Source: a phage
Sequence record: PZ534511.1
Length of the DNA: 64,000 nt
Direction: 5' to 3' (one strand)
Under the pieces are notes generated by a model. That model was not told the DNA's origin. It was given only the letters and a program-made list of their open reading frames with translations, and did not search any database. Positions 5,396 to 54,104 of the stretch are shown piece by piece. Both the position numbers and the translations under genes were made by a program. Within the stretch, counting starts at the first letter, position 1. The number at the start of each line of letters is the position of its first letter.

Positions 5396-5425
5396 GGTTT
5401 TAACTCCTCATTAGTTCAGTGTTAA

Positions 5426-5470
5426 CAGTGTAAAGTTTACTTTATTGATGGCCCTGGAGTCAAGGCCATC
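5426..5470 (-). repeat. 45 bp intergenic promoter-hairpin repeat, copy 2
   Basis: TTTACTTTATTGATGGCCCTGGAGTCAAGGCCATCTAAAAATAAA; identical to copy 3. Confidence 0.7.
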
Positions 5471-5482
5471 TAAAAATAAATT

Positions 5483-5902: not shown

Positions 5903-6058
5903 ATTAAAAGTTTAAGAAAAATTTTGCGACACCGTTGGCGCTACCCATCAACATTTGCGCCAGGATGTACCCAATGATGCAAACGATAATAGTTACCTTT
6001 GTGTGCTGGCGTGTAGTACTCATCTTTAAGCCCCCCTTTCCGCTCAACTGTGGTTAGT

Positions 6059-6103
6059 TTACTTTATTGATGGCCCTGGAGTCAAGGCCATCTAAAAATA
6101 AAC
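6059..6103 (-). repeat. 45 bp intergenic promoter-hairpin repeat, copy 3
   Basis: Identical to copy 2. Confidence 0.7.
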
Positions 6104-7325: not shown

Positions 7326-7571
7326 CTATTTTAAATTATTTTTATGATAGAATCCACCTGCCGCCCCCCGCCAGGTTAACCACCATTTTTTTTCGTACTC
7401 TTCTTTATGTTCCAACGCTCCCGCCATAACCTTTTCAACCAGGGCGATAGCTTCCGTATCATTAATCACTACATTTCCCAGGCGAGTAGCATTACCTTTC
7501 ATTTTTGTACCTCTTCTGTAGCTGTTTACTTTATAGTGCGGACCTGCCAGGCTGGCCCCGCCAGGTTGCAA
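7326..7571 (-). CDS. hypothetical small protein (probable start near 7502, MKGNATRLGN...)
   Basis: Track ORF; internal ATG preceded by AGAAGAGGTACAAAA RBS; the N-terminal extension overlaps GC-rich hairpin sequence. Confidence 0.4.
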   Translation of the reverse strand: MQPGGASLAGPHYKVNSYRRGTKMKGNATRLGNVVINDTEAIALVEKVMAGALEHKEEYEKKWWLTWRGAAGGFYHKNNLK

Positions 7572-7610
7572 CGGTTAGCGCATCAGGTTAGAAAAATTTT
7601 TTGAAAAGTG

Positions 7611-7639
7611 TTGACAGCGGCCCCGCCAGGCGGCATAAT
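7611..7639 (+). promoter_or_regulatory. plus-strand sigma70-like promoter (TTGACA-17-CATAAT)
   Basis: Near-consensus hexamers with 17 bp spacer; faces away from the minus-strand early genes into a noncoding region. Confidence 0.55.
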
Positions 7640-7645
7640 ATACCT

Positions 7646-7745
7646 ATCGAAAGGACGGCAGGCACCGGTGACGGGGGAGACAACCACCGGGGATGGGCGC
7701 TTCATAAAATGAGAACGGTTATCATTATCATTTAAAAATTTATGC
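7646..7745 (+). ncRNA. candidate small structured RNA, unit A (GC-rich stem-loop with GAGACAA loop motif, then AT-rich hairpin and U-rich tail)
   Basis: Lies just downstream of the 7611-7639 promoter; no ORF with RBS; shares GGGAGACAAYCACCGGG and GAGAAYNNTTATCATT motifs with unit B. Confidence 0.35.
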
Positions 7746-7789
7746 AAAAAATCCTTGCCTTCTTTGTCCTGTGTGATACTATAATAACA

Positions 7790-7880
7790 AGCCGGGGCAG
7801 CAGGGGCCGGGAGACAATCACCGGGCCTGCCCGTTATTCTGCAAACGAGAATAATTATCATTCAAAATTCTAAATAAGAA
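7790..7880 (+). ncRNA. candidate small structured RNA, unit B (paralogue of unit A)
   Basis: Preceded by TTGCCT..TATAAT promoter-like sequence (7755-7785, 19 bp spacer, weaker); stem GGGCAG..CTGCCC enclosing GGCCGGG/CCGGGCC with loop AGACAATCA. Confidence 0.3.
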
Positions 7881-7945
7881 TCCCTCGCATTTAATAAATT
7901 TAATTAGCATGCTAATTACCCTCCGTAACAATTTCCTATAAAACA

Positions 7946-8160
7946 GTGCCCCATAAAATATTCCCATATAGAAATTTTAAAAATCCATTTCTGAAAACGA
8001 AAAATAGATTTCGTCCCCAAAAATTTCAGGTCGAGATCCGGAACGATTTCCAGAAAATCCGATTCAGAAAACGAAAAACAGATCGAGTACTGAGAAATTT
8101 ATCGAGAAAAATTTTCAGAAAATCCAAGCCCTGGAATGAAAAGTAGATCGAGTACCTGGA
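7946..8160. repeat. AT-rich iteron-like direct repeats (GAAAACGAAAAAYAGAT, AGATCGAGTAC x2, CAGAAAATCC x2, AAATCCATTT)
   Basis: Short imperfect direct repeats read directly; the only large noncoding stretch in the window (about 7.87-8.46 kb). Confidence 0.5.
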
Positions 8161-8467
8161 AAGCTGCACCGCAACTTCAAGATAGTGGTTAGATTGTTAC
8201 CATAGAAGGTCAAGGGTAAGTGGAGGAAGTTCTAGTAGAGGGAGGTTAGCATGTGTGGGAAATCTATAATGGTGGTCTGGAATATGGTGCAAACGATAGG
8301 ATGAGCTATTCAGCTTGTCGCGCCTACTCTGAAAAATCCATTTTAGTTTTCGATCCATTTTCTGATTTTCTAAGAATTTTAAAATATCCAGCCCGGTGAA
8401 ATATCAAAAGGAGGAAATCCATTTTAGAAATCCCCCTTATACTTGATATGCCAGGAATTTTCAAGTA

Positions 8468-32776: not shown

Positions 32777-33923
32777 ACTCTTTTACAATCTTCATCAGGT
32801 TTGGGTATGCTTTGATCAGCTGAGCAACAATCTTGTCACGCCCTTTACCGATAAGCAAGGCATTTCCTAAGGCATTAGGTTTCATCATCGCCATAAAGAC
32901 TGAGAATACAAAATCTCGGTTCTCGTCCTTGAAGTTTTCCCAAAGGAAATCGAGGAAGTTTGCCACGCAGCTGACAAGATCTTCGTCTGAGATACTTGCA
33001 TTTTCCATCATATTGCGAATAGCGATACAACCTTCAGATCCAAGAATCCACAAAATGTCTGGCTGCTTAGGACCTACGTATTCTTTGCAGCCACCTGCCA
33101 TAATCCGACCGATTTCCGGTAAATTACGTTTCTTGGTGTGGTAAGTCCAGATCTCTACCGCTGCAGTGTGACCAATAGCACCTTGTAGAAGAACACGGGC
33201 CATAGCGTCAGAAATAATACCGCTGTCAAAATCGTGCAAGATGTCAGATGCAGCAACCCAAGATCGTGGTGTGGCAAAAGATGGACAATTAATCTCAGCC
33301 ATAGCCTCATAATTATCAATAGCTGATGGAACTCTTTTCAGATACCCAATTACAGAGGAGTGAACCCCGTTGAGGAATGCGTAGTCCTCAATAAACACCT
33401 CTGCATTGCTTGTAACCTCTACAATGATAAAACGGTTAGCCAGAGGGGCTTCGAGCGCCGAAAGAACCGCACCATCTGTAGAACGGTTACCCGCAGCCAC
33501 AAAAACAGAACCTTTAGGGAATGCATAGGTGCCGCACTTGTGGTCAAGCATAATTTGCATTGCAACCTTTTGCAGGTAGTTATCTGCATGAGTGAGCTCA
33601 TCCAGAAAGATAATTCCGCTCCAGTCAGGATCCGCAGGCCAAAATTCTGGAATTGCAAACACTGTACGTGTAGTTCCATCCGCTTCTACAGGGATAGGTA
33701 GCCCAGATAAGTCGGCAGGATCTTTATCTGACAGTCGCACGTCAACAAGGTTGTCATCTCGCTCACCGAACATATTATCAGCGATCTGCTTCATCACCTG
33801 GCTTTTACCCACACCCATTGGTCCCAAAATTAGGACAGATCGGCTATGACGTTGGGCAAACTGAATAATAGCTGGCAACTCACGGACAGTGATTTGACCA
33901 CTTTCGAATACGTTTCTTGACAT
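32739..33923 (-). CDS. MoxR-like AAA+ ATPase
   Basis: Walker A ILGPMGVGKSQ; Walker B IIFLDELTHAD; size about 390 aa. Confidence 0.65.
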   Translation of the reverse strand: MSRNVFESGQITVRELPAIIQFAQRHSRSVLILGPMGVGKSQVMKQIADNMFGERDDNLVDVRLSDKDPADLSGLPIPVEADGTTRTVFAIPEFWPADPDWSGIIFLDELTHADNYLQKVAMQIMLDHKCGTYAFPKGSVFVAAGNRSTDGAVLSALEAPLANRFIIVEVTSNAEVFIEDYAFLNGVHSSVIGYLKRVPSAIDNYEAMAEINCPSFATPRSWVAASDILHDFDSGIISDAMARVLLQGAIGHTAAVEIWTYHTKKRNLPEIGRIMAGGCKEYVGPKQPDILWILGSEGCIAIRNMMENASISDEDLVSCVANFLDFLWENFKDENRDFVFSVFMAMMKPNALGNALLIGKGRDKIVAQLIKAYPNLMKIVKEFGEEFSAILAKA

Positions 33924-34192
33924 TAGTAAAAGTCCTCTACTTGTGTGTAAGTGTTTTCAAAGTTTTCCAAAACAGATATCACATCGAATCTGTCAATATC
34001 ATACGTGACTCTCCAGTTGTACGCAACCCTTTCTGCTGTTGCCTCTTCTGGCGCTAGTCGTCTGCTGGCATAAAAGAGTGTTGGAGTACACTTTCTTGCT
34101 TGCCCTCTAACTTTCCCATAATAATATCTGTGAATATCTTTGTCAAAATTTAACTCTTTTTCTGCACGAAGTTCATATTGCTGGTATAACAT
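33923..34192 (-). CDS. hypothetical protein
   Basis: Track ORF 89 aa. Confidence 0.4.
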   Translation of the reverse strand: MLYQQYELRAEKELNFDKDIHRYYYGKVRGQARKCTPTLFYASRRLAPEEATAERVAYNWRVTYDIDRFDVISVLENFENTYTQVEDFY

Positions 34193-34619: not shown

Positions 34620-34877
34620 TCAGTCCACCTCTTCTTCTCGTTGTAGTTCAAGATACCCGTAGGTCTGGACATCTTGAAGGGTGTGGAACTCCCCCTCTGC
34701 CGCTAAGGCACGAACAACTTGGCACAAAACCTTATGAGGAACTTCATCCAAACCTAGATTCAGTGCAGGAAACACCTTATCTAAGTCAACAAAATAAACG
34801 AACTGTAGCTCACCAGCTTCAAAAGGTGTATCTTCAATAAACATCTTCTCGGCATTAGTCAAGATCTGCACTTTCAT
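34620..34877 (-). CDS. hypothetical protein
   Basis: Track ORF 85 aa. Confidence 0.4.
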   Translation of the reverse strand: MKVQILTNAEKMFIEDTPFEAGELQFVYFVDLDKVFPALNLGLDEVPHKVLCQVVRALAAEGEFHTLQDVQTYGYLELQREEEVD

Positions 34878-35254
34878 TATTCTACCTCCTCTTCTTTTTC
34901 TTCGGCATTAGTTTCATGGCTACCCCACTCGGGAGTTTCCACCTCGATAGTAAACTCACGCACTACACGGTAATTGCCCATGAAGCGCTCTACTTCGTCA
35001 AGGCTTATGGAGAGGCCATTGGCAACCAGGTCTGCAGCACCCTCTTCTACCAGGTAGTCCAGATTGGCTTCCAGAGCCTTAGGTTCAAACCCTGTCAATG
35101 CAATCAGATAACCTTCCCCTTCATCAGGGAGGACAATACAGCCCAATTGATTTTCTTTAAAAAGGCAGTGACCATCATTATTGATTGGGTGTTCATTGCA
35201 GTAAATAGCTGCACGATAAGTAACTTTAGACATCGGTAAGGTCTCCTTAGGCAA
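34877..35254 (-). CDS. hypothetical protein (probable start at MSKVTYRA, near 35233)
   Basis: Internal ATG preceded by AAGGAGACC RBS; its first codons lie within a 28 bp inverted repeat shared with 37072-37099. Confidence 0.45.
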   Translation of the reverse strand: MPKETLPMSKVTYRAAIYCNEHPINNDGHCLFKENQLGCIVLPDEGEGYLIALTGFEPKALEANLDYLVEEGAADLVANGLSISLDEVERFMGNYRVVREFTIEVETPEWGSHETNAEEKEEEVE

Positions 35255-35525
35255 TTGTCATTTTACATTCTTGAAATTTTAACACAAGACGGTGATTGTG
35301 TCTAGTGTCTAAAAAGATTTTTTCAACCATCAGGCACACGGTATAACCGTCCATCTTGTTGACAACAAAATCTCCAGGATGAGGGAGGATGTCTCCCGGA
35401 TTGGGGAAACATAGTCCACTCAGAAAGGCATCGTCAGTGGTGGACTTAATAGATTTCCACACACTGTCTGCCTGAACATGTTCACCGACGTAATATACAT
35501 TACCACATGCCTTCATCATAGTCAA
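35247..35525 (-). CDS. hypothetical protein
   Basis: Track ORF 92 aa. Confidence 0.4.
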   Translation of the reverse strand: MTMMKACGNVYYVGEHVQADSVWKSIKSTTDDAFLSGLCFPNPGDILPHPGDFVVNKMDGYTVCLMVEKIFLDTRHNHRLVLKFQECKMTIA

Positions 35526-36421
35526 ACCCTCGCATAAATTAAACTTGTATCAGTATACTTCTTTAATGGGTAAATATCCTGTCCATAGATGCAATCATTA
35601 AACACCTCATCTACCCAAAGGCTACACTTATATCCCATCATTTCTAAAACACCCATCTCTTCTTCGGTAAACTTATCACCGCTCTTGCAAGATGTCAATA
35701 CCTCATTCTGAACTCTTGCTACCTCGAAGCGGTTATTGGCAATATCGCTATTGGCGATCAAATACTCACCTAGAGGGTGTGCGGCATTAAAGATGCACAG
35801 CGGACGGCTGACGTAATAGTCTCCAGGTGTATAAAAATTGTTGAGGTCTTTCACTAGAACATTCTTATCAGTCACTTCATTTATAACATCATGCATATCG
35901 CACATCTTTATATGTTTGAGGATTCCATCCCCCATCACAAAATAAAAACTTGCTGAGACACTTTCGGCATAGATCTTACTAGATCCGTTGTAGTTGTATT
36001 TTACTCGGATGCTAACGGGGGTTTTTCCTGTCGCGTTAGCCATCATCCAAAGAAATGGCAGCTCATACTTCTCCTCTGAGGAAACAAAAGGTGAGGTAGC
36101 CAGAGATCGAAAACCTCCAGAGAAGTTGAAAGTTACAGAACCGCTCCGGCGGTATGATACCGCGTATTCTACTTTTATATCGACATACCCATTGGAATAG
36201 GTGTGTCCTTCATTATCTAAATATGTCCACTTATCAGACCCAGATACCAATCTACGCTCAATAACCTTCATCACTATAGGAATTAATGGGTTGGTACAAA
36301 CCGCTTTTGAAGTAGCTTTATCATCTAAAGCCTCGTAAATTGCAGAAAGGATGTCCCCAGCTGAAAGATTGGTTGTTATGTCCTGTTTCCACCGCGTACT
36401 AAAACTGTTAAGATTTGCCAT
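35522..36421 (-). CDS. hypothetical protein
   Basis: Track ORF 299 aa; RBS TAGGAGCAC; promoter TTGACT-17-TATAGT at 36452-36480. Confidence 0.5.
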   Translation of the reverse strand: MANLNSFSTRWKQDITTNLSAGDILSAIYEALDDKATSKAVCTNPLIPIVMKVIERRLVSGSDKWTYLDNEGHTYSNGYVDIKVEYAVSYRRSGSVTFNFSGGFRSLATSPFVSSEEKYELPFLWMMANATGKTPVSIRVKYNYNGSSKIYAESVSASFYFVMGDGILKHIKMCDMHDVINEVTDKNVLVKDLNNFYTPGDYYVSRPLCIFNAAHPLGEYLIANSDIANNRFEVARVQNEVLTSCKSGDKFTEEEMGVLEMMGYKCSLWVDEVFNDCIYGQDIYPLKKYTDTSLIYARV

Positions 36422-36451
36422 AAGTAAGTGCTCCTATGTTAGTTTTCTTTC

Positions 36452-36480
36452 GAATGGGTGCACTATATTGTGGAGTTAGA
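36452..36480 (-). promoter_or_regulatory. sigma70-like promoter (TTGACT-17-TATAGT), divergent partner of the 36504 promoter
   Basis: Read on the minus strand upstream of the 35522..36421 gene. Confidence 0.5.
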
Positions 36481-36497
36481 GTAAAGTCAACACGTTT

Positions 36498-37541
36498 TTG
36501 ATGTTGACATCTGTTGAGACAATTGATACGATTTCTTCACTTACAGAGCACGAGAGACGACTCATGAATCTTGAAAAATATTATACACCAGAAGAGTTAG
36601 AGCGCTTGCTCAAAAAATATAGACGCAAACAGAATAACGCACGGAAACGAGATATAGAGTTCGACCTGTCATGGGAAGAATACCTCCTATTTGGTAAAAA
36701 ACTTTTAGGAGATGGAGTATGCGACTATACCCTTATACCTTTTGACATGCACACAGATGAAAACGGGCTGGGGAATCCTTTCTACCCATCTCTGGAGCGG
36801 ATAGATGATGAAGGTCCTTATGCGGCTGATAACTGTTGTGTGGTGGGATTGAGATGCAACTCTCTAAAGGACTGTCTGGTAGATAAAAAGACTGCAGTCT
36901 TGATTAAAGACGAAACTGATCGAAAAATTGTCCAGCAGATGATGCTCCACCTGAGCGAAGAGCGTATGGAGAAATTGAAAGGTGATTATACTTTTGAAGA
37001 TTTCATCTTGCAATATGGAACGGAAGAGGATAAACTAGCACTCTTTGACGAAGAAGAGGAGGAAGATATGCTACCGATGTCTAAAGTTACTTATCGTGCA
37101 CCCAAGAAGCACATTTCCGACATTGTAAACGAGCCTATCACAGAAGAGATTGAAGAAATGACGCAACAGGTGCATGAAGAGGAAAAAGAGACTCAGGAGG
37201 TCGAAGAGGAGCTTACAGAAGAGGTTCCTGCACTACCTGATGATGTTGAGATTGCCAAAGCTTACACTTTCTATTGTCAAACGTTCTACGATGTAGGTAT
37301 GAAAGTTGATCTGTCATTCAGCCAATTTAAGAGTTCGTATATTCGCAAATGCTGTGCTTTAACTGGTGAACGTCTTGGAGCTGGACTTAAACCCCTGTTG
37401 GTGACCGACTGGAATAAAGGTTTCACTAAAGGAAACTTTATGGTAGTATCTCCAATTATGGAGAAAGCTATGACAGATCTTATGAAGACCACCCGCATGA
37501 CAATGACCGAGTTGGCAGGTATTTTCAAACACGTTAAATAA
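36498..37541 (+). CDS. protein with two tandem degenerate HNH/endonuclease VII-like domains (probable true start about 36564, MNLEKYY...)
   Basis: Internal duplication (DLSWEEY..GVCDYT.. and DLSFSQF..CCALTG..); CxxC..N..CN..K-like remnants; track start is TTG inside the promoter; contains internal MSKVTYRA start-like repeat. Confidence 0.4.
   Translation: MMLTSVETIDTISSLTEHERRLMNLEKYYTPEELERLLKKYRRKQNNARKRDIEFDLSWEEYLLFGKKLLGDGVCDYTLIPFDMHTDENGLGNPFYPSLERIDDEGPYAADNCCVVGLRCNSLKDCLVDKKTAVLIKDETDRKIVQQMMLHLSEERMEKLKGDYTFEDFILQYGTEEDKLALFDEEEEEDMLPMSKVTYRAPKKHISDIVNEPITEEIEEMTQQVHEEEKETQEVEEELTEEVPALPDDVEIAKAYTFYCQTFYDVGMKVDLSFSQFKSSYIRKCCALTGERLGAGLKPLLVTDWNKGFTKGNFMVVSPIMEKAMTDLMKTTRMTMTELAGIFKHVK
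36504..36532 (+). promoter_or_regulatory. sigma70-like promoter (TTGACA-17-TACGAT) driving the plus-strand island
   Basis: Hexamers read directly; overlaps the first codons of the over-extended track ORF. Confidence 0.5.
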
Positions 37542-37553
37542 TGACAGGGGCCA

Positions 37554-39035
37554 ATGGCCCCTTCTGGAGTTTTAATGGATAGCAGAAGTTCAGAAATCAT
37601 TGCCTCGCAGAAAGATGATGCCCTGAGAATGTTGCAGGCTGCACGTATGTATCTCCTTGAAAAGCTGCCGTTTTATGGCACACTACTGTCAGGGTTGCAG
37701 TTCGTAGAAAACCACACATGGTGCTCCACCATGGCAACCGACCATAAACGCATCTACTACAGCCCTGAGTTCATTATGGGGTTGGCGGATGAGCGTAAAA
37801 CCATTCTTAAAGCATCTCTGACTGACAAGCAGTTTGAGATGGCTGAGGTTTTCTATTCCCCAAAATCTGTGAAAGAGGTGGCCTTTCTTCTGTCACATGA
37901 GGTGGGGCATATTATCTGTGATCATCTGGTCCGTGGTAAAAGCTTTGAGCCGGAACTGTTCAATATTGCTTGTGATCACGTTATCAACACAGGTCTTGTG
38001 GTTGACTTTAGCAAGCCTCCTTGTGTTTTCTTCCCGAAGGGGAAAAGCACTGAGTTCGTAAAAGGTAAGCCTTTTGGCTTCTTAGCTAATTGCTACTGCG
38101 ACATGAGGTTTCATGGATGGATTGCTGAGAACGTCTATGCAGTTCTTGATAAACAAAGAGATCAGAATGGCGGTAAAAGTAAGAACGGTAAAGGTGAGAA
38201 CTCCCAAGGAGATAAACGACAAACCGATGATCACATGAGCGGGAACGGTGGCACTAGTGATGATCTTGGAAAGGCTATGGGGTATGATCAGCCGCAACCA
38301 GTAATCAGTCAATCTGACAAAGATCAGGCCATGCAGGACTCTGGTGACATGTTGGAAGCAGCAATGCAAGCTTCAGGAGGTCGTTGCCCCGAGGCGGTGC
38401 GCGAGTTTGTCAAAAACAGAGGCAAGCCTGTAATCAATTATATAGATATTATTAAGCAACGTATGTTATCTAAAAGAAAGGCTGAGTTAACCTACAGAAA
38501 ACCTGGTCGCCGATCTGGGTCTTTGACCACCACAATGCGAAAAGTTGGAGCTATAAACAAGAATCAACACGTTATTGTTCCTGGTCGTAATCCGGAAAAC
38601 ACTATAGATATTGTAGTGGCTTTAGACGTTTCTGGGTCGATCTCACAAAGAACTTTAAAGAAAATGTTCAATGAGATCACCGGGTTGTGCAATTTGTATA
38701 AAGAGTTTAAGGTTACTATGTTCTGTTGGTCAACGGAGGTTGGAGAGGTTAAAGTATACACTCGCGGTAACATCGATGAGATGATTAACTATGAGGTCCA
38801 CTCAACATGGGGCACAACAGCCGCCTGCGTGTTCGAGTATCTGGATGCTAACATACCGAATGCAAAAGATGTCATCGTCCTTACCGACCTCTACTTTGAG
38901 CATAACTTTGAACAAAAGGCTGTTGACAACAAGTGGAAAAAGTACGATACTTTATGGGTTCTCACCGAAGGGTATAATAAAAATTATATCCCGAGCTTTG
39001 GGAAAACTGTGGAATTAATCGAGTACGCTAAGTAA
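37554..39035 (+). CDS. VWA-domain protein with N-terminal HExxH metallopeptidase-like motif
   Basis: HEVGHIICDH motif near residue 115; MIDAS motif VALDVSGSIS in the C-terminal half. Confidence 0.6.
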   Translation: MAPSGVLMDSRSSEIIASQKDDALRMLQAARMYLLEKLPFYGTLLSGLQFVENHTWCSTMATDHKRIYYSPEFIMGLADERKTILKASLTDKQFEMAEVFYSPKSVKEVAFLLSHEVGHIICDHLVRGKSFEPELFNIACDHVINTGLVVDFSKPPCVFFPKGKSTEFVKGKPFGFLANCYCDMRFHGWIAENVYAVLDKQRDQNGGKSKNGKGENSQGDKRQTDDHMSGNGGTSDDLGKAMGYDQPQPVISQSDKDQAMQDSGDMLEAAMQASGGRCPEAVREFVKNRGKPVINYIDIIKQRMLSKRKAELTYRKPGRRSGSLTTTMRKVGAINKNQHVIVPGRNPENTIDIVVALDVSGSISQRTLKKMFNEITGLCNLYKEFKVTMFCWSTEVGEVKVYTRGNIDEMINYEVHSTWGTTAACVFEYLDANIPNAKDVIVLTDLYFEHNFEQKAVDNKWKKYDTLWVLTEGYNKNYIPSFGKTVELIEYAK

Positions 39036-39041
39036 GAGAGG

Positions 39042-39308
39042 ATGGTATTTATGGCAACAGAGGTAGTAATTAAAGCTGAACGCCCAGTTAAAAAAGCTAT
39101 CAACACGTTCCCTGTAGGAACCATTGTGAGCATGATTACAGAGTCAGGCCGTGTATCTACACTGCTAATCGTGAAATCTGCATGCTCATCTTGTGTGTGG
39201 GCATACGATCTTGACGAGAAAGAACTGAAAGATTTTGTTGGGGAGCTGAAAGCAACAGAGCTTGACGCTCGTATCGAAGTATTTGGTGAAACTATGAAGG
39301 AAGAGTAA
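39042..39308 (+). CDS. hypothetical protein
   Basis: Track ORF 88 aa; RBS AGAGAGGATGG. Confidence 0.45.
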   Translation: MVFMATEVVIKAERPVKKAINTFPVGTIVSMITESGRVSTLLIVKSACSSCVWAYDLDEKELKDFVGELKATELDARIEVFGETMKEE

Positions 39309-39571
39309 TGACTACAAAAATCACTATTGCAGAACCAAAAGCTAACACGCAACCTATCGAAAAGTTTAAATGCGGTGAGGTGGTAACATTCACACCGGAT
39401 AATGAAGATGCTAAGATTTTTGCCATGGTCACAGCCGAGTGGATGTGTGACAATACCACACAGGTGCTGCGTTTTGACACCTATCTTACAGATGAAATCA
39501 GGAACGACAAGATTGTGACTGGTGTGGATACTGAGATTATTTTCTACAAGAGCTTTTTAGAGGGTTTCTGA
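39308..39571 (+). CDS. hypothetical protein
   Basis: Track ORF 87 aa; start overlaps the upstream stop. Confidence 0.45.
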   Translation: MTTKITIAEPKANTQPIEKFKCGEVVTFTPDNEDAKIFAMVTAEWMCDNTTQVLRFDTYLTDEIRNDKIVTGVDTEIIFYKSFLEGF

Positions 39572-51005: not shown

Positions 51006-52052
51006 TTAAGCATAAGATATAGTGATCCATTGACCATTTACAAGTTTTTGGATAGCACCTGTCCAGTAATCACCTTGATAAGGGTGTTTATAAGCGTAGT
51101 TACCAGAGCACATCACATGTCCAGGGTAGACTCTTGACTCTCTGTAGGTGGTTTTAAAACGGTTTGCTATCCTTACATCATCAACCCCTCTGCTAGGCAT
51201 AGGGATAGTAAGGTTACCGCTACTGTCTGCGCCGTTACCATTTACCCTGCGGACCACGTTTCTTCCACCAACTGTTGCATATTGGCCCCTGACGGTTTCA
51301 TCGTTACAATCAACTCTTCCACCTATTTGAGCGCTTCCGCAGGATTGTTGTCCATTAACAGTGGCTCTTGGTATCGTGACCGCATTGGCATTTGCAGAGG
51401 AACTTTTTGCATCGTTGCATTCAAGATTTCCTTGGATAGCCAGTCTTGCACGGTTGGCAGTTATAGCATTGAGCTTCATAGCTGAAAACACAGGCTGCCC
51501 ACCAGAAGGTTGAAATCTCCAACGGAACCCATCTATTTGGTGAGAAGGATCATCAAGGTCTGTGCCGTCAGCACCACCGATGTTGTCCATAATCCAGAAA
51601 TCCATCGTCGTCTTGTCTGGAGTTATGGTGGTATATATTGCCGCACTGTCTGTTGACGCAGATGCAAACTCGATTCTTTGAAGACCTAAAGTTTGAGTCT
51701 GAGTCATTATGTCTCCAGACTTGTCAACATATAGATCGTCCATTTCTTCAGGTGAGTATACATTGAGAACTTGACGTGCAGCAGCTTTGTCTGGAACGTC
51801 TGCTAGATTATTAGTGACCCTTAAGAATCTATTATCCCATCCTGGGACAACATCTTCTGTTAAATGCTTCAACCACGCAGAAAGCATGTGAAGTTCAAAG
51901 TTAACAACTTCACATGCCATTCTTTGTGTCATATCCCAACCTTTCAATCTCTCTTCTTTTTTTGGTTGAGATTTATTCAACTCTCCCGTATTTTCAAGCA
52001 CAACATCCTGATTGGCCCAAATATCAAGAGGGATAACTGGTTTAGTCATCAC
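51006..52052 (-). CDS. tail fibre protein, paralogue 2 (348 aa)
   Basis: N-terminus (PLDIWANQDVVL..KGWDMTQ) and C-terminus (QKLVNGQWITISYA) conserved with 53064..54104; 30 bp identical DNA at the 3' ends (51011-51040 vs 53069-53098). Confidence 0.6.
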   Translation of the reverse strand: MMTKPVIPLDIWANQDVVLENTGELNKSQPKKEERLKGWDMTQRMACEVVNFELHMLSAWLKHLTEDVVPGWDNRFLRVTNNLADVPDKAAARQVLNVYSPEEMDDLYVDKSGDIMTQTQTLGLQRIEFASASTDSAAIYTTITPDKTTMDFWIMDNIGGADGTDLDDPSHQIDGFRWRFQPSGGQPVFSAMKLNAITANRARLAIQGNLECNDAKSSSANANAVTIPRATVNGQQSCGSAQIGGRVDCNDETVRGQYATVGGRNVVRRVNGNGADSSGNLTIPMPSRGVDDVRIANRFKTTYRESRVYPGHVMCSGNYAYKHPYQGDYWTGAIQKLVNGQWITISYA

Positions 52053-53063: not shown

Positions 53064-54104
53064 CTATGCATAATTAACAGTGATCCATTGACCATTTACA
53101 AGTTTTTGTAAAGGTCCTGCCCAGTAGGTTGAACCACGCATCTCTTTTTTGTCACCGAAATGCCAGCCTGTGACAACGTAGCCGTTGCGGATTGGAGATT
53201 CAGAAACGCCGTCCACAAGTCTTGCACCGATTCTGATGTCTTGCACACCTGTCTGCGGGATAGTGATCGTTACATCACCGTTACCGTTAGCCGTCACTCC
53301 ATTCACGGAGCGCACCACATTTCTGTTACCGACAACACAGTGCTGGCTTCTTACAACCATACTGTCACAACTTGCACCACCATTAACATATACTGACCCA
53401 GCCGTCAACTGACTAGCCACATTACAGTTGGTGAATGTTGCTGTATTGCTGATAGTAAGGTTATTGCACCTCATGTTATCGACAACTTCAACATTGCCTA
53501 CCACTTTCAACAGCGCACGATTAGCCGTGATCGCGTTAAGGTACATCAAAGTGAACTCTGGATTAATATCCGGCTGAGTTGGCTGGAATCTCCAACGAAA
53601 CGCATCTACTGTAGATGTACCACCATCATCAAACGACCCGGTATTATCACTTAACCCAAAGTCGAGAGTTGTCTTATCTGGGCCAATAGTTGTCTCTATC
53701 CAAGCCTTATCTGTCTCGGCAGCTTTAAAGTTGATACGTTGCAACCCCAAGGGGCCTGTCATTGTATCACCTGTAACTTTTACATACCTGGCGTCTGCCT
53801 CTTCCTTAGTGATAATCCCAAGGTTTCTACGGGCAACAGGGATGTTCAAAAGATCGCTCAAGTTATTATCACGTACCAGATAACGGCCTTCTTGAGCGGG
53901 GATCTGCTCGTCAGCAATGTATTTTGCCCAAGTTCCGAGCATATTGAAAATATAGTTAAGTTCTTCACAGGATGGCTTTTGACCAAGATCCCAACCTTTT
54001 CTCCACAAATCATCAATCGGGCGTAGCCTGTTCTGTCTGTGGGTGTTAGGCAGAACCTGATCCTCCTCTGCCCAAATCTCTAATGGAAAACTAGGTTTTG
54101 ACAT
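53064..54104 (-). CDS. tail fibre protein, paralogue 1 (346 aa)
   Basis: See 51006..52052; conserved termini, divergent central region. Confidence 0.6.
   Translation of the reverse strand: MSKPSFPLEIWAEEDQVLPNTHRQNRLRPIDDLWRKGWDLGQKPSCEELNYIFNMLGTWAKYIADEQIPAQEGRYLVRDNNLSDLLNIPVARRNLGIITKEEADARYVKVTGDTMTGPLGLQRINFKAAETDKAWIETTIGPDKTTLDFGLSDNTGSFDDGGTSTVDAFRWRFQPTQPDINPEFTLMYLNAITANRALLKVVGNVEVVDNMRCNNLTISNTATFTNCNVASQLTAGSVYVNGGASCDSMVVRSQHCVVGNRNVVRSVNGVTANGNGDVTITIPQTGVQDIRIGARLVDGVSESPIRNGYVVTGWHFGDKKEMRGSTYWAGPLQKLVNGQWITVNYA

Follow-up and report, generated by a model that had tools for sequence, protein, structure and literature searches.

The 64,000 nucleotides (nt) of phage sequence record PZ534511.1 analyzed here, referred to as the window, stem from a Vequintavirus, i.e., an rV5-like Escherichia coli myophage, and feature a perfect inverted repeat of 29 nt, one arm of which covers the translation start of the ORF8 homologue (copy A) while the other lies inside the ORF11 homologue (copy B). 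With a probability of roughly 0.75, copy B represents a young, lineage-specific templated copy of the ORF8 start in a tolerant linker of ORF11. The repeat is accordingly regarded as a mutational scar, possibly a recombinationally active one, and not as a second gene start, a conserved signal or a dedicated inversion system. The underlying event is an instance of a known mutational kind, at an unusually long range. The repeat region is 99% identical to that of rV5-like phages of the genus and equivalent to ORF5-ORF12 of rV5, with the following features bearing on the repeat (aa, amino acids):

35210..35238, minus strand: copy A, the donor arm, spanning -5 to +24 of the ORF8-homologue start, with the ATG at 35233-35231 and the peptide MSKVTYRA.
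37072..37100, plus strand: copy B, the derived arm, within the ORF11 homologue, from L170 (part) to A179, with the internal ATG 37077 as M172.
34877..35233, minus strand: ORF8 homologue, 118 aa, phrog_12908, function unknown, with the start as annotated in Murica, rV5 and others.
35243..35248, minus strand: Shine-Dalgarno sequence AAGGAG of ORF8, 9 nt 5' of the ATG and not within the repeat, given as ribosome_binding_site in the Murica annotation.
36564..37541, plus strand: ORF11 homologue, 325 aa, with an N-terminal Srd/endonuclease-VII-like domain, an acidic linker and a conserved C-terminal domain.
36999..37235, plus strand: hypervariable acidic linker of ORF11, home of copy B (alignment columns ca. 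147-229, poorly conserved).
37071..37106, plus strand: derived tract with the flanking substitutions 37071 T>C, 37101 G>C and 37106 C>G.
35239..37071, no strand: inter-arm segment of 1,833 nt, which holds ORF9, ORF10, the divergent promoters and the ORF11 N-domain.

An earlier note, made from the letters of this DNA, had reported a 28-bp perfect inverted repeat, which proved to be real and exactly placed: the 28-mer TACCGATGTCTAAAGTTACTTATCGTGC occurs twice without mismatch in the window, at 35211-35238 (minus) and 37072-37099 (plus). Its true length is one base more, so that arms of 29 nt (35210-35238, minus; 37072-37100, plus), complementary at 29/29 positions, are separated by a spacer of 1,833 nt. 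Both copies read ATG TCT AAA GTT ACT TAT CGT GCA (MSKVTYRA), in frame with the respective host gene. No third copy of the 28-mer was found in the window with up to 3 mismatches allowed, and relative genomes feature the sequence in at most 2 places. The 29-nt pair is the longest perfect inverted repeat of the 64-kb window, the remaining repeats of which are promoter- or terminator-like elements. That the pair is a chance match or an artefact of sequencing or assembly can practically be dismissed, given that none of 100 dinucleotide-preserving shuffles contained a match to the 28-mer, that the longest inverted repeats in five shuffles reached 16-19 nt, and that the pair was found in 26 independently isolated phages from many depositing groups (the carrier records originate from Denmark, Switzerland, the USA, Germany and Ireland) as well as on long metagenome contigs. 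The papers on rV5-like phages hold no mention of the 29-nt repeat, and scans of the window for Rfam families and tRNAs gave no matches.

The direction of copying follows from alleles which lack the patch. At the copy B site, these alleles feature a sequence longer by 12 nt, SPMQDFKNFMADRAAN, including short microhomologies to the ORF8 start. The three deeply diverged patch-free ORF11 alleles, i.e., the rV5-type, the FV3/A147/WM-type and the Aya-type, have the common reading ...ATG TCA CC[G/A] ATG CAGGATTTTAAAAA[T/C]TTCATGGCT[G/A] ATCGTG[C/G]AGCC AAC..., which encodes SPMQDFKNFMA[DNE]R[AG]AN. Since three such diverged alleles agree, the patch-free state is ancestral, the ORF8 start was the donor and copy B is derived. 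In the carriers of copy B, the 13 nt TCTAAAGTTACTT stand in place of 25 ancestral nt, with a net change of -12 nt and the frame kept, and donor-consistent changes reach at most 37072-37100. The identity of the arms takes in all synonymous positions of the 8 codons and ends abruptly on both sides, which argues for copying at the DNA level and not for convergence or selection on the peptide. Thus, the suggestion of the earlier note that the repeat marks a recombination junction holds insofar as copy B arose from DNA-level copying, but what was copied is a patch of 13-29 nt in a collinear gene and no boundary of an exchanged module.

Regarding the mechanism, the tract at the ORF8 start would have been copied, inverted, into the ORF11 linker 1.8 kb away in the ancestor of one ORF11 allele. 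The copied tract would comprise at least 13 nt (TCTAAAGTTACTT) and at most 29 nt, these limits being the first mismatches on either side. Priming was probably provided by prior microhomologies of rV5-type alleles, namely ACCGATG and, at the opposite end, ATCGTGCA(GC). In rV5/JES2013-type ORF11, ACCGATG (7 nt) and ATCGTGCAGC (10 nt) are shared with the ORF8 start in the same order and orientation, and FV3-type alleles have less in common with it (ACC..ATG, ATCGTG). Double microhomologies within 3 kb are common by chance: shuffles contain about 20 per 64 kb, and the real window has 73 of them. The presence of microhomologies on both sides favors, as the possible route, either an ectopic micro-conversion or a template switch, the latter during replication or during recombination-dependent synthesis. 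Within one continuous protein, the internal MSKVTYRA would accordingly be a passenger peptide, located in a linker which looks disordered and tolerates change. As a by-product, homologous recombination between the arms might now invert the 1.8-kb segment with its promoters.

When a mutation is templated by strand switching, an imperfect inverted repeat turns perfect in a single step, the signature of such a mutation being a complex change fully specified by the other arm (PMC7202029). A prior imperfect inverted repeat is indeed present in rV5/JES2013-type ORF11, the multi-base change (25 nt to 13 nt) is fully specified by the other arm and complementarity was raised to perfection (29/29), while arms within hairpin range, i.e., tens of nt, are not found here, the distance being 1,833 nt. 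Because this spacing far exceeds tens of nt, the event was not filed as a classical quasipalindrome event; from the alleles compared, it would rather have worked like a template switch or an ectopic micro-conversion. Microhomology-primed template switches also occur in recombinational repair synthesis during gene conversion in yeast (bioRxiv 10.1101/2023.08.09.552703), and short-range template switches were found in ape genomes (PMC7954356). A different course of events is conceivable, in which an illegitimate inversion with staggered breaks duplicated the ORF8 start and a later homologous event flipped the segment back, the inverted form thus being the primary one. This would bring the inverted duplication, the loss of 25 nt at site B and the recombinant-junction contigs described below into one framework. 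Nevertheless, it is an improbable history, as it demands two rare events where the templated patch demands one, all complete carriers are in the parental order, and no sequence feature sets it apart from the simpler model.

Several points weigh against the templated copy. Classical quasipalindrome events span tens of nt and not 1.8 kb, so the mechanism proposed is an extrapolation. Immediately beside the tract, three substitutions (37071 T>C, 37101 G>C, 37106 C>G) are found neither in the donor nor in an ancestral allele; they may reflect ordinary allele divergence or be tied to the copying event. Besides, the exact recipient allele is unsampled: the carrier ORF11 allele is approximately 5-7% divergent from its nearest sampled relatives, and because the closest patch-free allele differs by about 5% outside the patch, only limits can be given for the tract length and for the use of microhomologies. 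The repeat, its limited occurrence, the ancestral state, the copying direction, the position in the linker and the loss of arm identity are shown by the sequences. The enzymatic mechanism and the neutrality of the patch are inferred, the latter from distribution and decay, and the recombinant-junction contigs could mean an ongoing biological role which is hidden from finished genomes.

Copy A was found, with few point variants, in every Vequintavirus relative examined. By comparison, copy B is present in 28 of about 116 GenBank records, corresponding to 26 phages, and is missing in ca. 75% of the genus; the absence of the repeat in relatives, named in the earlier note as a finding against its reading, is thus seen in most of them. 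An alignment of 18 relatives revealed that every carrier has one distinct ORF11 allele, which is at least 99% identical among the sampled carriers save ECP32 (about 95% nucleotide and 98.5% protein identity to the carrier allele) and 90-94% identical to all other alleles. ORF8 alleles and the derived ORF11 allele have been reassorted over different backbones: carriers include nomine (species APECc02) and Murica (species murica), while HeinrichReichert and isim, likewise of species murica, are without copy B. The presence of one carrier allele on different backbones argues that copy B originated once and was then spread through recombination. The arms match exactly over at most 29 nt in 23 records, 27 nt in nomine, A51.2 and PMBT16, 24 nt in ECP32 and 13 nt in Alma. 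With this decay, there is no concerted evolution, and selection does not seem to hold the arms identical. Carriers already sequenced as isolates comprise Murica, pangalan and the BASEL phages CarlMeissner and WalterGehring, with rV5 and HeinrichReichert as non-carriers. Searches of IMG/VR and GTDB genomes gave 0 matches, and complete E. coli assemblies, which contained no Vequintavirus at all, were uninformative. As a side observation on the GenBank relatives, sixteen records labeled "Campylobacter phage" (MG0656xx, e.g., MG065635, MG065655, and MG065644), some of them flagged UNVERIFIED, are 92-99% identical across the repeat region to E. coli rV5-like phages, which looks like a wrong host assignment or contaminated lysates.

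ORF11, the host gene of copy B, is a single continuous gene. It matches phrog_3118 with E = 3.6e-113 (residues 3-324 to profile positions 2-286 of 287), full-length homologues of 23-40% identity exist in Seunavirus, Avunavirus and Mydovirus as well as in Erwinia, Serratia and Aeromonas phages, and an alignment with three of these homologues places copy B in the acidic linker, which is rich in indels and joins two conserved domains; together, these findings lead to the conclusion of one gene. The linker is almost absent in Av-05 and differs among alleles by indels of 3, 9, and 12 nt. The N-domain additionally matches the Srd, sigma-70 decoy and endonuclease VII PHROGs, in line with the description of rV5 gp11 as a "probable Srd homolog" (PMC3606486), and a Pfam scan of ORF8-ORF11 gave no match. 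The proposal of the earlier note that ORF11 may be two genes or possess an internal initiation site was therefore abandoned, as phrog_3118 spans both domains and full-length homologues are found in other genera. Of the ribosome binding sites which the same note had placed upstream of both copies, AAGGAG of ORF8 stands, while the internal GAGGAGG (37056-37062) is too distant for a good Shine-Dalgarno sequence. It consists of poly-Glu codons and ends 14 nt before ATG 37077; another ATG (37068) is located 5 nt from it.

A shared function of the 29 nt at the RNA or protein level, be it a translational operator, a small RNA target, internal initiation or a targeting peptide, appears hardly credible from the sequences compared. 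It would be in accordance with the same 29 nt surrounding the AUG in both mRNAs and with the conservation of the internal Met at the copy B position within the genus. However, the ORF8 Shine-Dalgarno sequence was not part of the copied tract, so that copy B has none of it and the nearest similar run is the one ending 14 nt 5'. Furthermore, copy B is missing in most of the genus, a stand-alone gene for the ORF11 C-domain is essentially never found among homologues (in tblastn, ORF11 is matched at ≥80% coverage by 205 of 211 records) and the window is without any Rfam match. Copy A itself varies at synonymous and non-synonymous sites (FV3, Aya, isim, Alma), which argues against a nucleotide-level constraint on it. 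Likewise, the shared N-terminal targeting peptide envisaged by the earlier note is not supported, given both the lack of the peptide in about three quarters of the genus and the identity at every synonymous position, which indicates DNA copying.

Between the arms, two further genes and a pair of promoters are located:

35247-35519, minus strand: ORF9.
35522-36421, minus strand: ORF10.
36462..36532, no strand: back-to-back sigma-70-like promoters, located between the arms.
36504-36532, plus strand: rightward promoter TTGACA-17-TACGAT, at the same place as the annotated P11 of rV5.
36490-36462, minus strand: leftward promoter TTGACT-17-TATAGT.

The claim that the repeats bracket about 1.8 kb containing divergent promoters was thus confirmed (36462-36532). 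The gene boundaries assumed before needed revision: copy A does lie at the start of ORF8, but the TTG starts of the maximal open reading frames are wrong, with ORF8 starting at ATG 35233. Likewise, TTG 36498 is not the start of ORF11; since it precedes the promoter at 36504-36532 (P11 of rV5), the true start is ATG 36564. A palindrome, GTCAAC-N11-GTTGAC at 36486-36508, overlaps the -35 boxes of both promoters and may serve as a shared operator of the ORF10-ORF5 and ORF11-ORF12 operons. Several labels of neighboring genes deserve attention. ORF12 (37554-39035) is a DUF2201 metallopeptidase/VWA protein (Pfam E = 2e-28) which several public records mislabel as "HNH endonuclease" or "anti-sigma factor"; the label "alpha 1-3 fucosyltransferase" of ORF10 (35522-36421) is without Pfam support, the ORF11 homologue of APCEc02 is labeled a fucosyltransferase, and ORF5 (33923-34192, 89 aa) carries the public label "ATPase". 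3' of ORF12, a family of paralogous genes of ca. 87 aa was observed (window 39042-39571; contig L022 5222-6011; contig L055 5051-5840), with two copies in the window and in contig L026 and three in inoa, L055, and L056, the copies being too diverged to be called a DNA tandem repeat.

Simulated recombination between the arms yields two in-frame products, i.e., a 289-aa fusion of the ORF11 N-domain with ORF8 (ORF11N-ORF8) and a 154-aa free C-domain (ORF11C) behind the ORF8 Shine-Dalgarno sequence, and every gene retains a promoter in the inverted isomer. Genomes with this isomer were not encountered among the GenBank carriers, all 28 records of which are collinear with the window (inverted: 0/28), and the 17 further long carrier contigs are parental without exception. 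Of the long contigs, the only one from a scan of JGI metagenomes (137 kb) is in parental arrangement, 13 of the 20 public ones obtained through ORF7 and ORF9 feature both copies and are all parental, and L052, L055, and L056 are parental, too. In 50,697 phage records, 80-mers of the recombinant junctions J1 and J2 matched only partially and in parental contexts. Among the representatives of 5.8 billion protein clusters, no full-length match to the 289-aa fusion was found; matches of odd length in this search were frameshifted or truncated parental forms, and the listing of the ORF8 cluster contained only 118-aa members, so that partial fusions could not show. A protein of 157 aa (P0028, MLPMSKV...), considered as a second stand-alone C-domain, was rejected, as it traced back to a parental context with a frameshift or to contigs starting near the repeat.

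These results bear on the possibility that the repeat is a functional switch working by inversion, comparable to Mu G, P1 C or Hin, which would alternate protein architectures or operon wirings. Short inverted repeats bracketing a promoter-bearing segment, the in-frame character of both junctions and the possible recombinant junction in metagenomes would all fit such a switch. Still, no recombinase domain was detected by Pfam in seven neighboring genes, PHROG matches of ORF8-ORF11 are confined to families of unknown function or of the Srd/HNH type, and the rV5 genome paper is without any mention of an integrase or recombinase (PMC3606486). Given also that the repeat is missing in ca. 75% of the genus, decays among carriers to 27, 24, and 13 nt and has no inverted finished genome to its name, the switch is very improbable and, by its distribution, largely refuted.

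A rearrangement of the segment at low abundance is a separate matter, as the predicted junction does exist in public assemblies. An exact-sequence look-up of the 154-aa ORF11C product found it called as its own gene on 7 public contigs, six of them shorter than 2 kb and one of 6.7 kb. The six contigs fetched (L026-L031) feature the order ORF9, ORF8 Shine-Dalgarno sequence, repeat, ORF11C and ORF12; each aligns to the simulated inverted isomer without a break, and to the parental order only with a split at the repeat. Three backgrounds can be told apart among them: the window-like L030 and L031, L026 with both arms nomine-like, and L027-L029, which are pangalan-like and belong to one strain with a private CCT just 3' of the repeat. 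The inversion substrate proposed in the earlier note is tentatively supported insofar as the predicted junction is found on six short metagenome contigs, and countered by its absence from 28 GenBank records and 17 long contigs; the lack of inversion isomers, which that note had named as a finding against it, thus applies to finished genomes. By comparison with the short junction contigs, 54% of the ORF9 index blocks have their longest contig in the 50-200 kb class, and the exact full-length ORF11 of the window was found only on contigs of at least 20 kb.

The assembly of short reads offers one source of such junctions. The upstream arm of L027-L031 is merely 27-163 nt long, and at k ≤ 27 (L026) or k ≤ 29 (L030, L031), every k-mer of the recombinant path also occurs in parental genomes. 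The default settings of MEGAHIT and SPAdes start at k = 21. As no novel k-mer is needed at k ≤ 27-29, multi-k assemblers can mis-join the arms at low coverage without a spanning read. The SPAdes coverage of two junction contigs was 0.41 and 2.0, and five of the six junction contigs could be such small-k mis-joins. Apart from these, it was observed that the low-coverage parental contigs L053 and L054 break about 20 nt 5' of the repeat and that L052 has a frameshifted ORF11 at 3.7x coverage. The remaining junction contig, L026, stems from Logan, for which 31-mers were assembled, singleton k-mers dropped and the graph simplified with Minia3 (PMC12424806). Assembled at k = 31 across a repeat of 27 nt, it needs three 31-mers which are absent from parental genomes and were each seen at least twice; therefore, at least one junction molecule existed in the ERR6406626 library. 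This molecule was either a true recombinant or an in-vitro library chimera. Multiple displacement amplification (MDA) is known to generate chimeras of which more than 85% are inverted, mostly through intramolecular joins primed on 2-21 nt (Lasken and Stockwell, 2007, PMC1855051), and chimeras of this type are a possible source of the recombinant-junction reads.

It is thus possible, though doubtful, that the arms are recombinationally active in vivo, such that the 1.8-kb segment flips and minority or low-abundance isomers occur which are not necessarily adaptive; this would be compatible with a templated origin of copy B. Such flipping is consistent with the seven contigs calling ORF11C and the fit of the six fetched ones to the inverted isomer, with their origin from three backgrounds, with the non-parental 31-mers of L026 and its nomine-like arms, and with in-frame products and retained promoters for every gene. 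Nevertheless, the 28 GenBank carrier records and 17 long contigs are all parental, the junction is confined to contigs of at most 6.7 kb, mis-joins at small k are possible without a spanning read (one contig having a coverage of 0.41), inverted joins can also arise as in-vitro chimeras through priming on 2-21 nt (PMC1855051), and the cluster representatives contained no fusion protein in full length. There is a very slight chance that the inversion has a function. That the junction contigs are genuine and mark a newborn invertible segment without a dedicated recombinase, with two viable isomers re-wiring both divergent operons, is unlikely; the isomers would then express the ORF11N-ORF8 fusion and a free ORF11 C-domain on the one hand and intact ORF8 and ORF11 on the other hand, offering a natural snapshot of how domain-shuffling inversion systems begin.

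Other repeats of the window lie far from the locus. A 57-nt element occurs in three copies of 84-100% identity (1707-1763, 5424-5480, and 6046-6102) and contains GTTTACTTTATT with a GC-rich hairpin (GATGGCCCTGGAGTCAAGGCCATC) and an A-rich tail behind it. Its make-up suggests a regulatory cassette repeated in the early region (promoter or terminator plus stem-loop) and recalls the promoter-stem-loop cassettes of T4. The region 7560-8200 comprises about 650 nt without an obvious gene and features a near-consensus promoter behind AGAAAAATTTTTTGAAAAGT, a motif recurring at 574-600, 2064-2083, and 8105-8124, as well as structured stretches of high GC content and, at 7980-8165, three direct repeats of 47 nt with a spacing of 65-74 nt. 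It could be a source of small RNA or an origin- or iteron-like region and has no Rfam match. Finally, a 62-nt direct repeat of 84% identity (51007-51068 and 53065-53126), with a distance of 2,058 nt between its copies, is probably a sign of paralogous genes or domains.

The templated copy of the ORF8 start offers a clean natural example of its kind, as donor, ancestral recipient and derived product are all kept in sequenced relatives. A microhomology-flanked, inverted templated copy over 1.8 kb would have created a new in-frame linker sequence and a perfect inverted repeat in the same step. Moreover, the locus calls for caution in two respects. However striking, a start peptide shared by two proteins may simply have been carried along by DNA copying, and a repeat of 27-29 nt suffices to break or mis-join low-coverage multi-k assemblies, so that recombinant junctions in public contigs need confirmation at the level of reads. 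Should the junction contigs be real, the birth of an invertible, domain-swapping segment could be studied at this locus as a tractable model.

Compared with known systems, ORF11 is a full-length member of the family of T4 Srd and the phrog_3118 proteins annotated as "HNH endonuclease / anti-sigma factor", which concerns the identity of the host gene only, the family being without a known link to the repeat. The chimeras of MDA and strand-displacement synthesis resemble the proposed origin as its in-vitro counterpart, since they are inverted intramolecular joins at short complementary stretches. However, they are amplification artefacts, whereas the 29-nt repeat itself is present in 26 independent isolates and is no artefact. 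Site-specific invertible segments are represented by G/Gin of phage Mu, C/Cin of P1 and Hin of Salmonella. With these, the locus has short inverted repeats in common, and an inversion would exchange parts of proteins in frame and place genes under other promoters. In contrast to them, no invertase gene was found here, the repeats are not conserved, finished genomes are not inverted, and flipping would need general homologous recombination over 27-29 bp. In the quasipalindrome template switch (Ripley model), studied with thyA and lacZ reporters in E. coli and with T4 rII (PMC7202029), a repeat is likewise perfected in one step, here through substitutions and a 12-nt deletion. Nevertheless, the arms of those systems are tens of nt apart and their products are reporter revertants, whereas a natural fixed variant with a spacing of 1,833 nt is dealt with here. 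A simple hairpin of the nascent strand is unlikely at this distance, and a template switch across the fork or in a D-loop, or an ectopic conversion, was therefore invoked. The out-and-back switches on microhomologies of a few to about 10 nt, as ascribed to microhomology-mediated break-induced replication and fork stalling and template switching (MMBIR/FoSTeS), are alike in leaving a short inverted copy which resembles a mutation cluster. Such switching is not described for the rV5-like phage group, in which the copied tract would have become part of a protein-coding linker.

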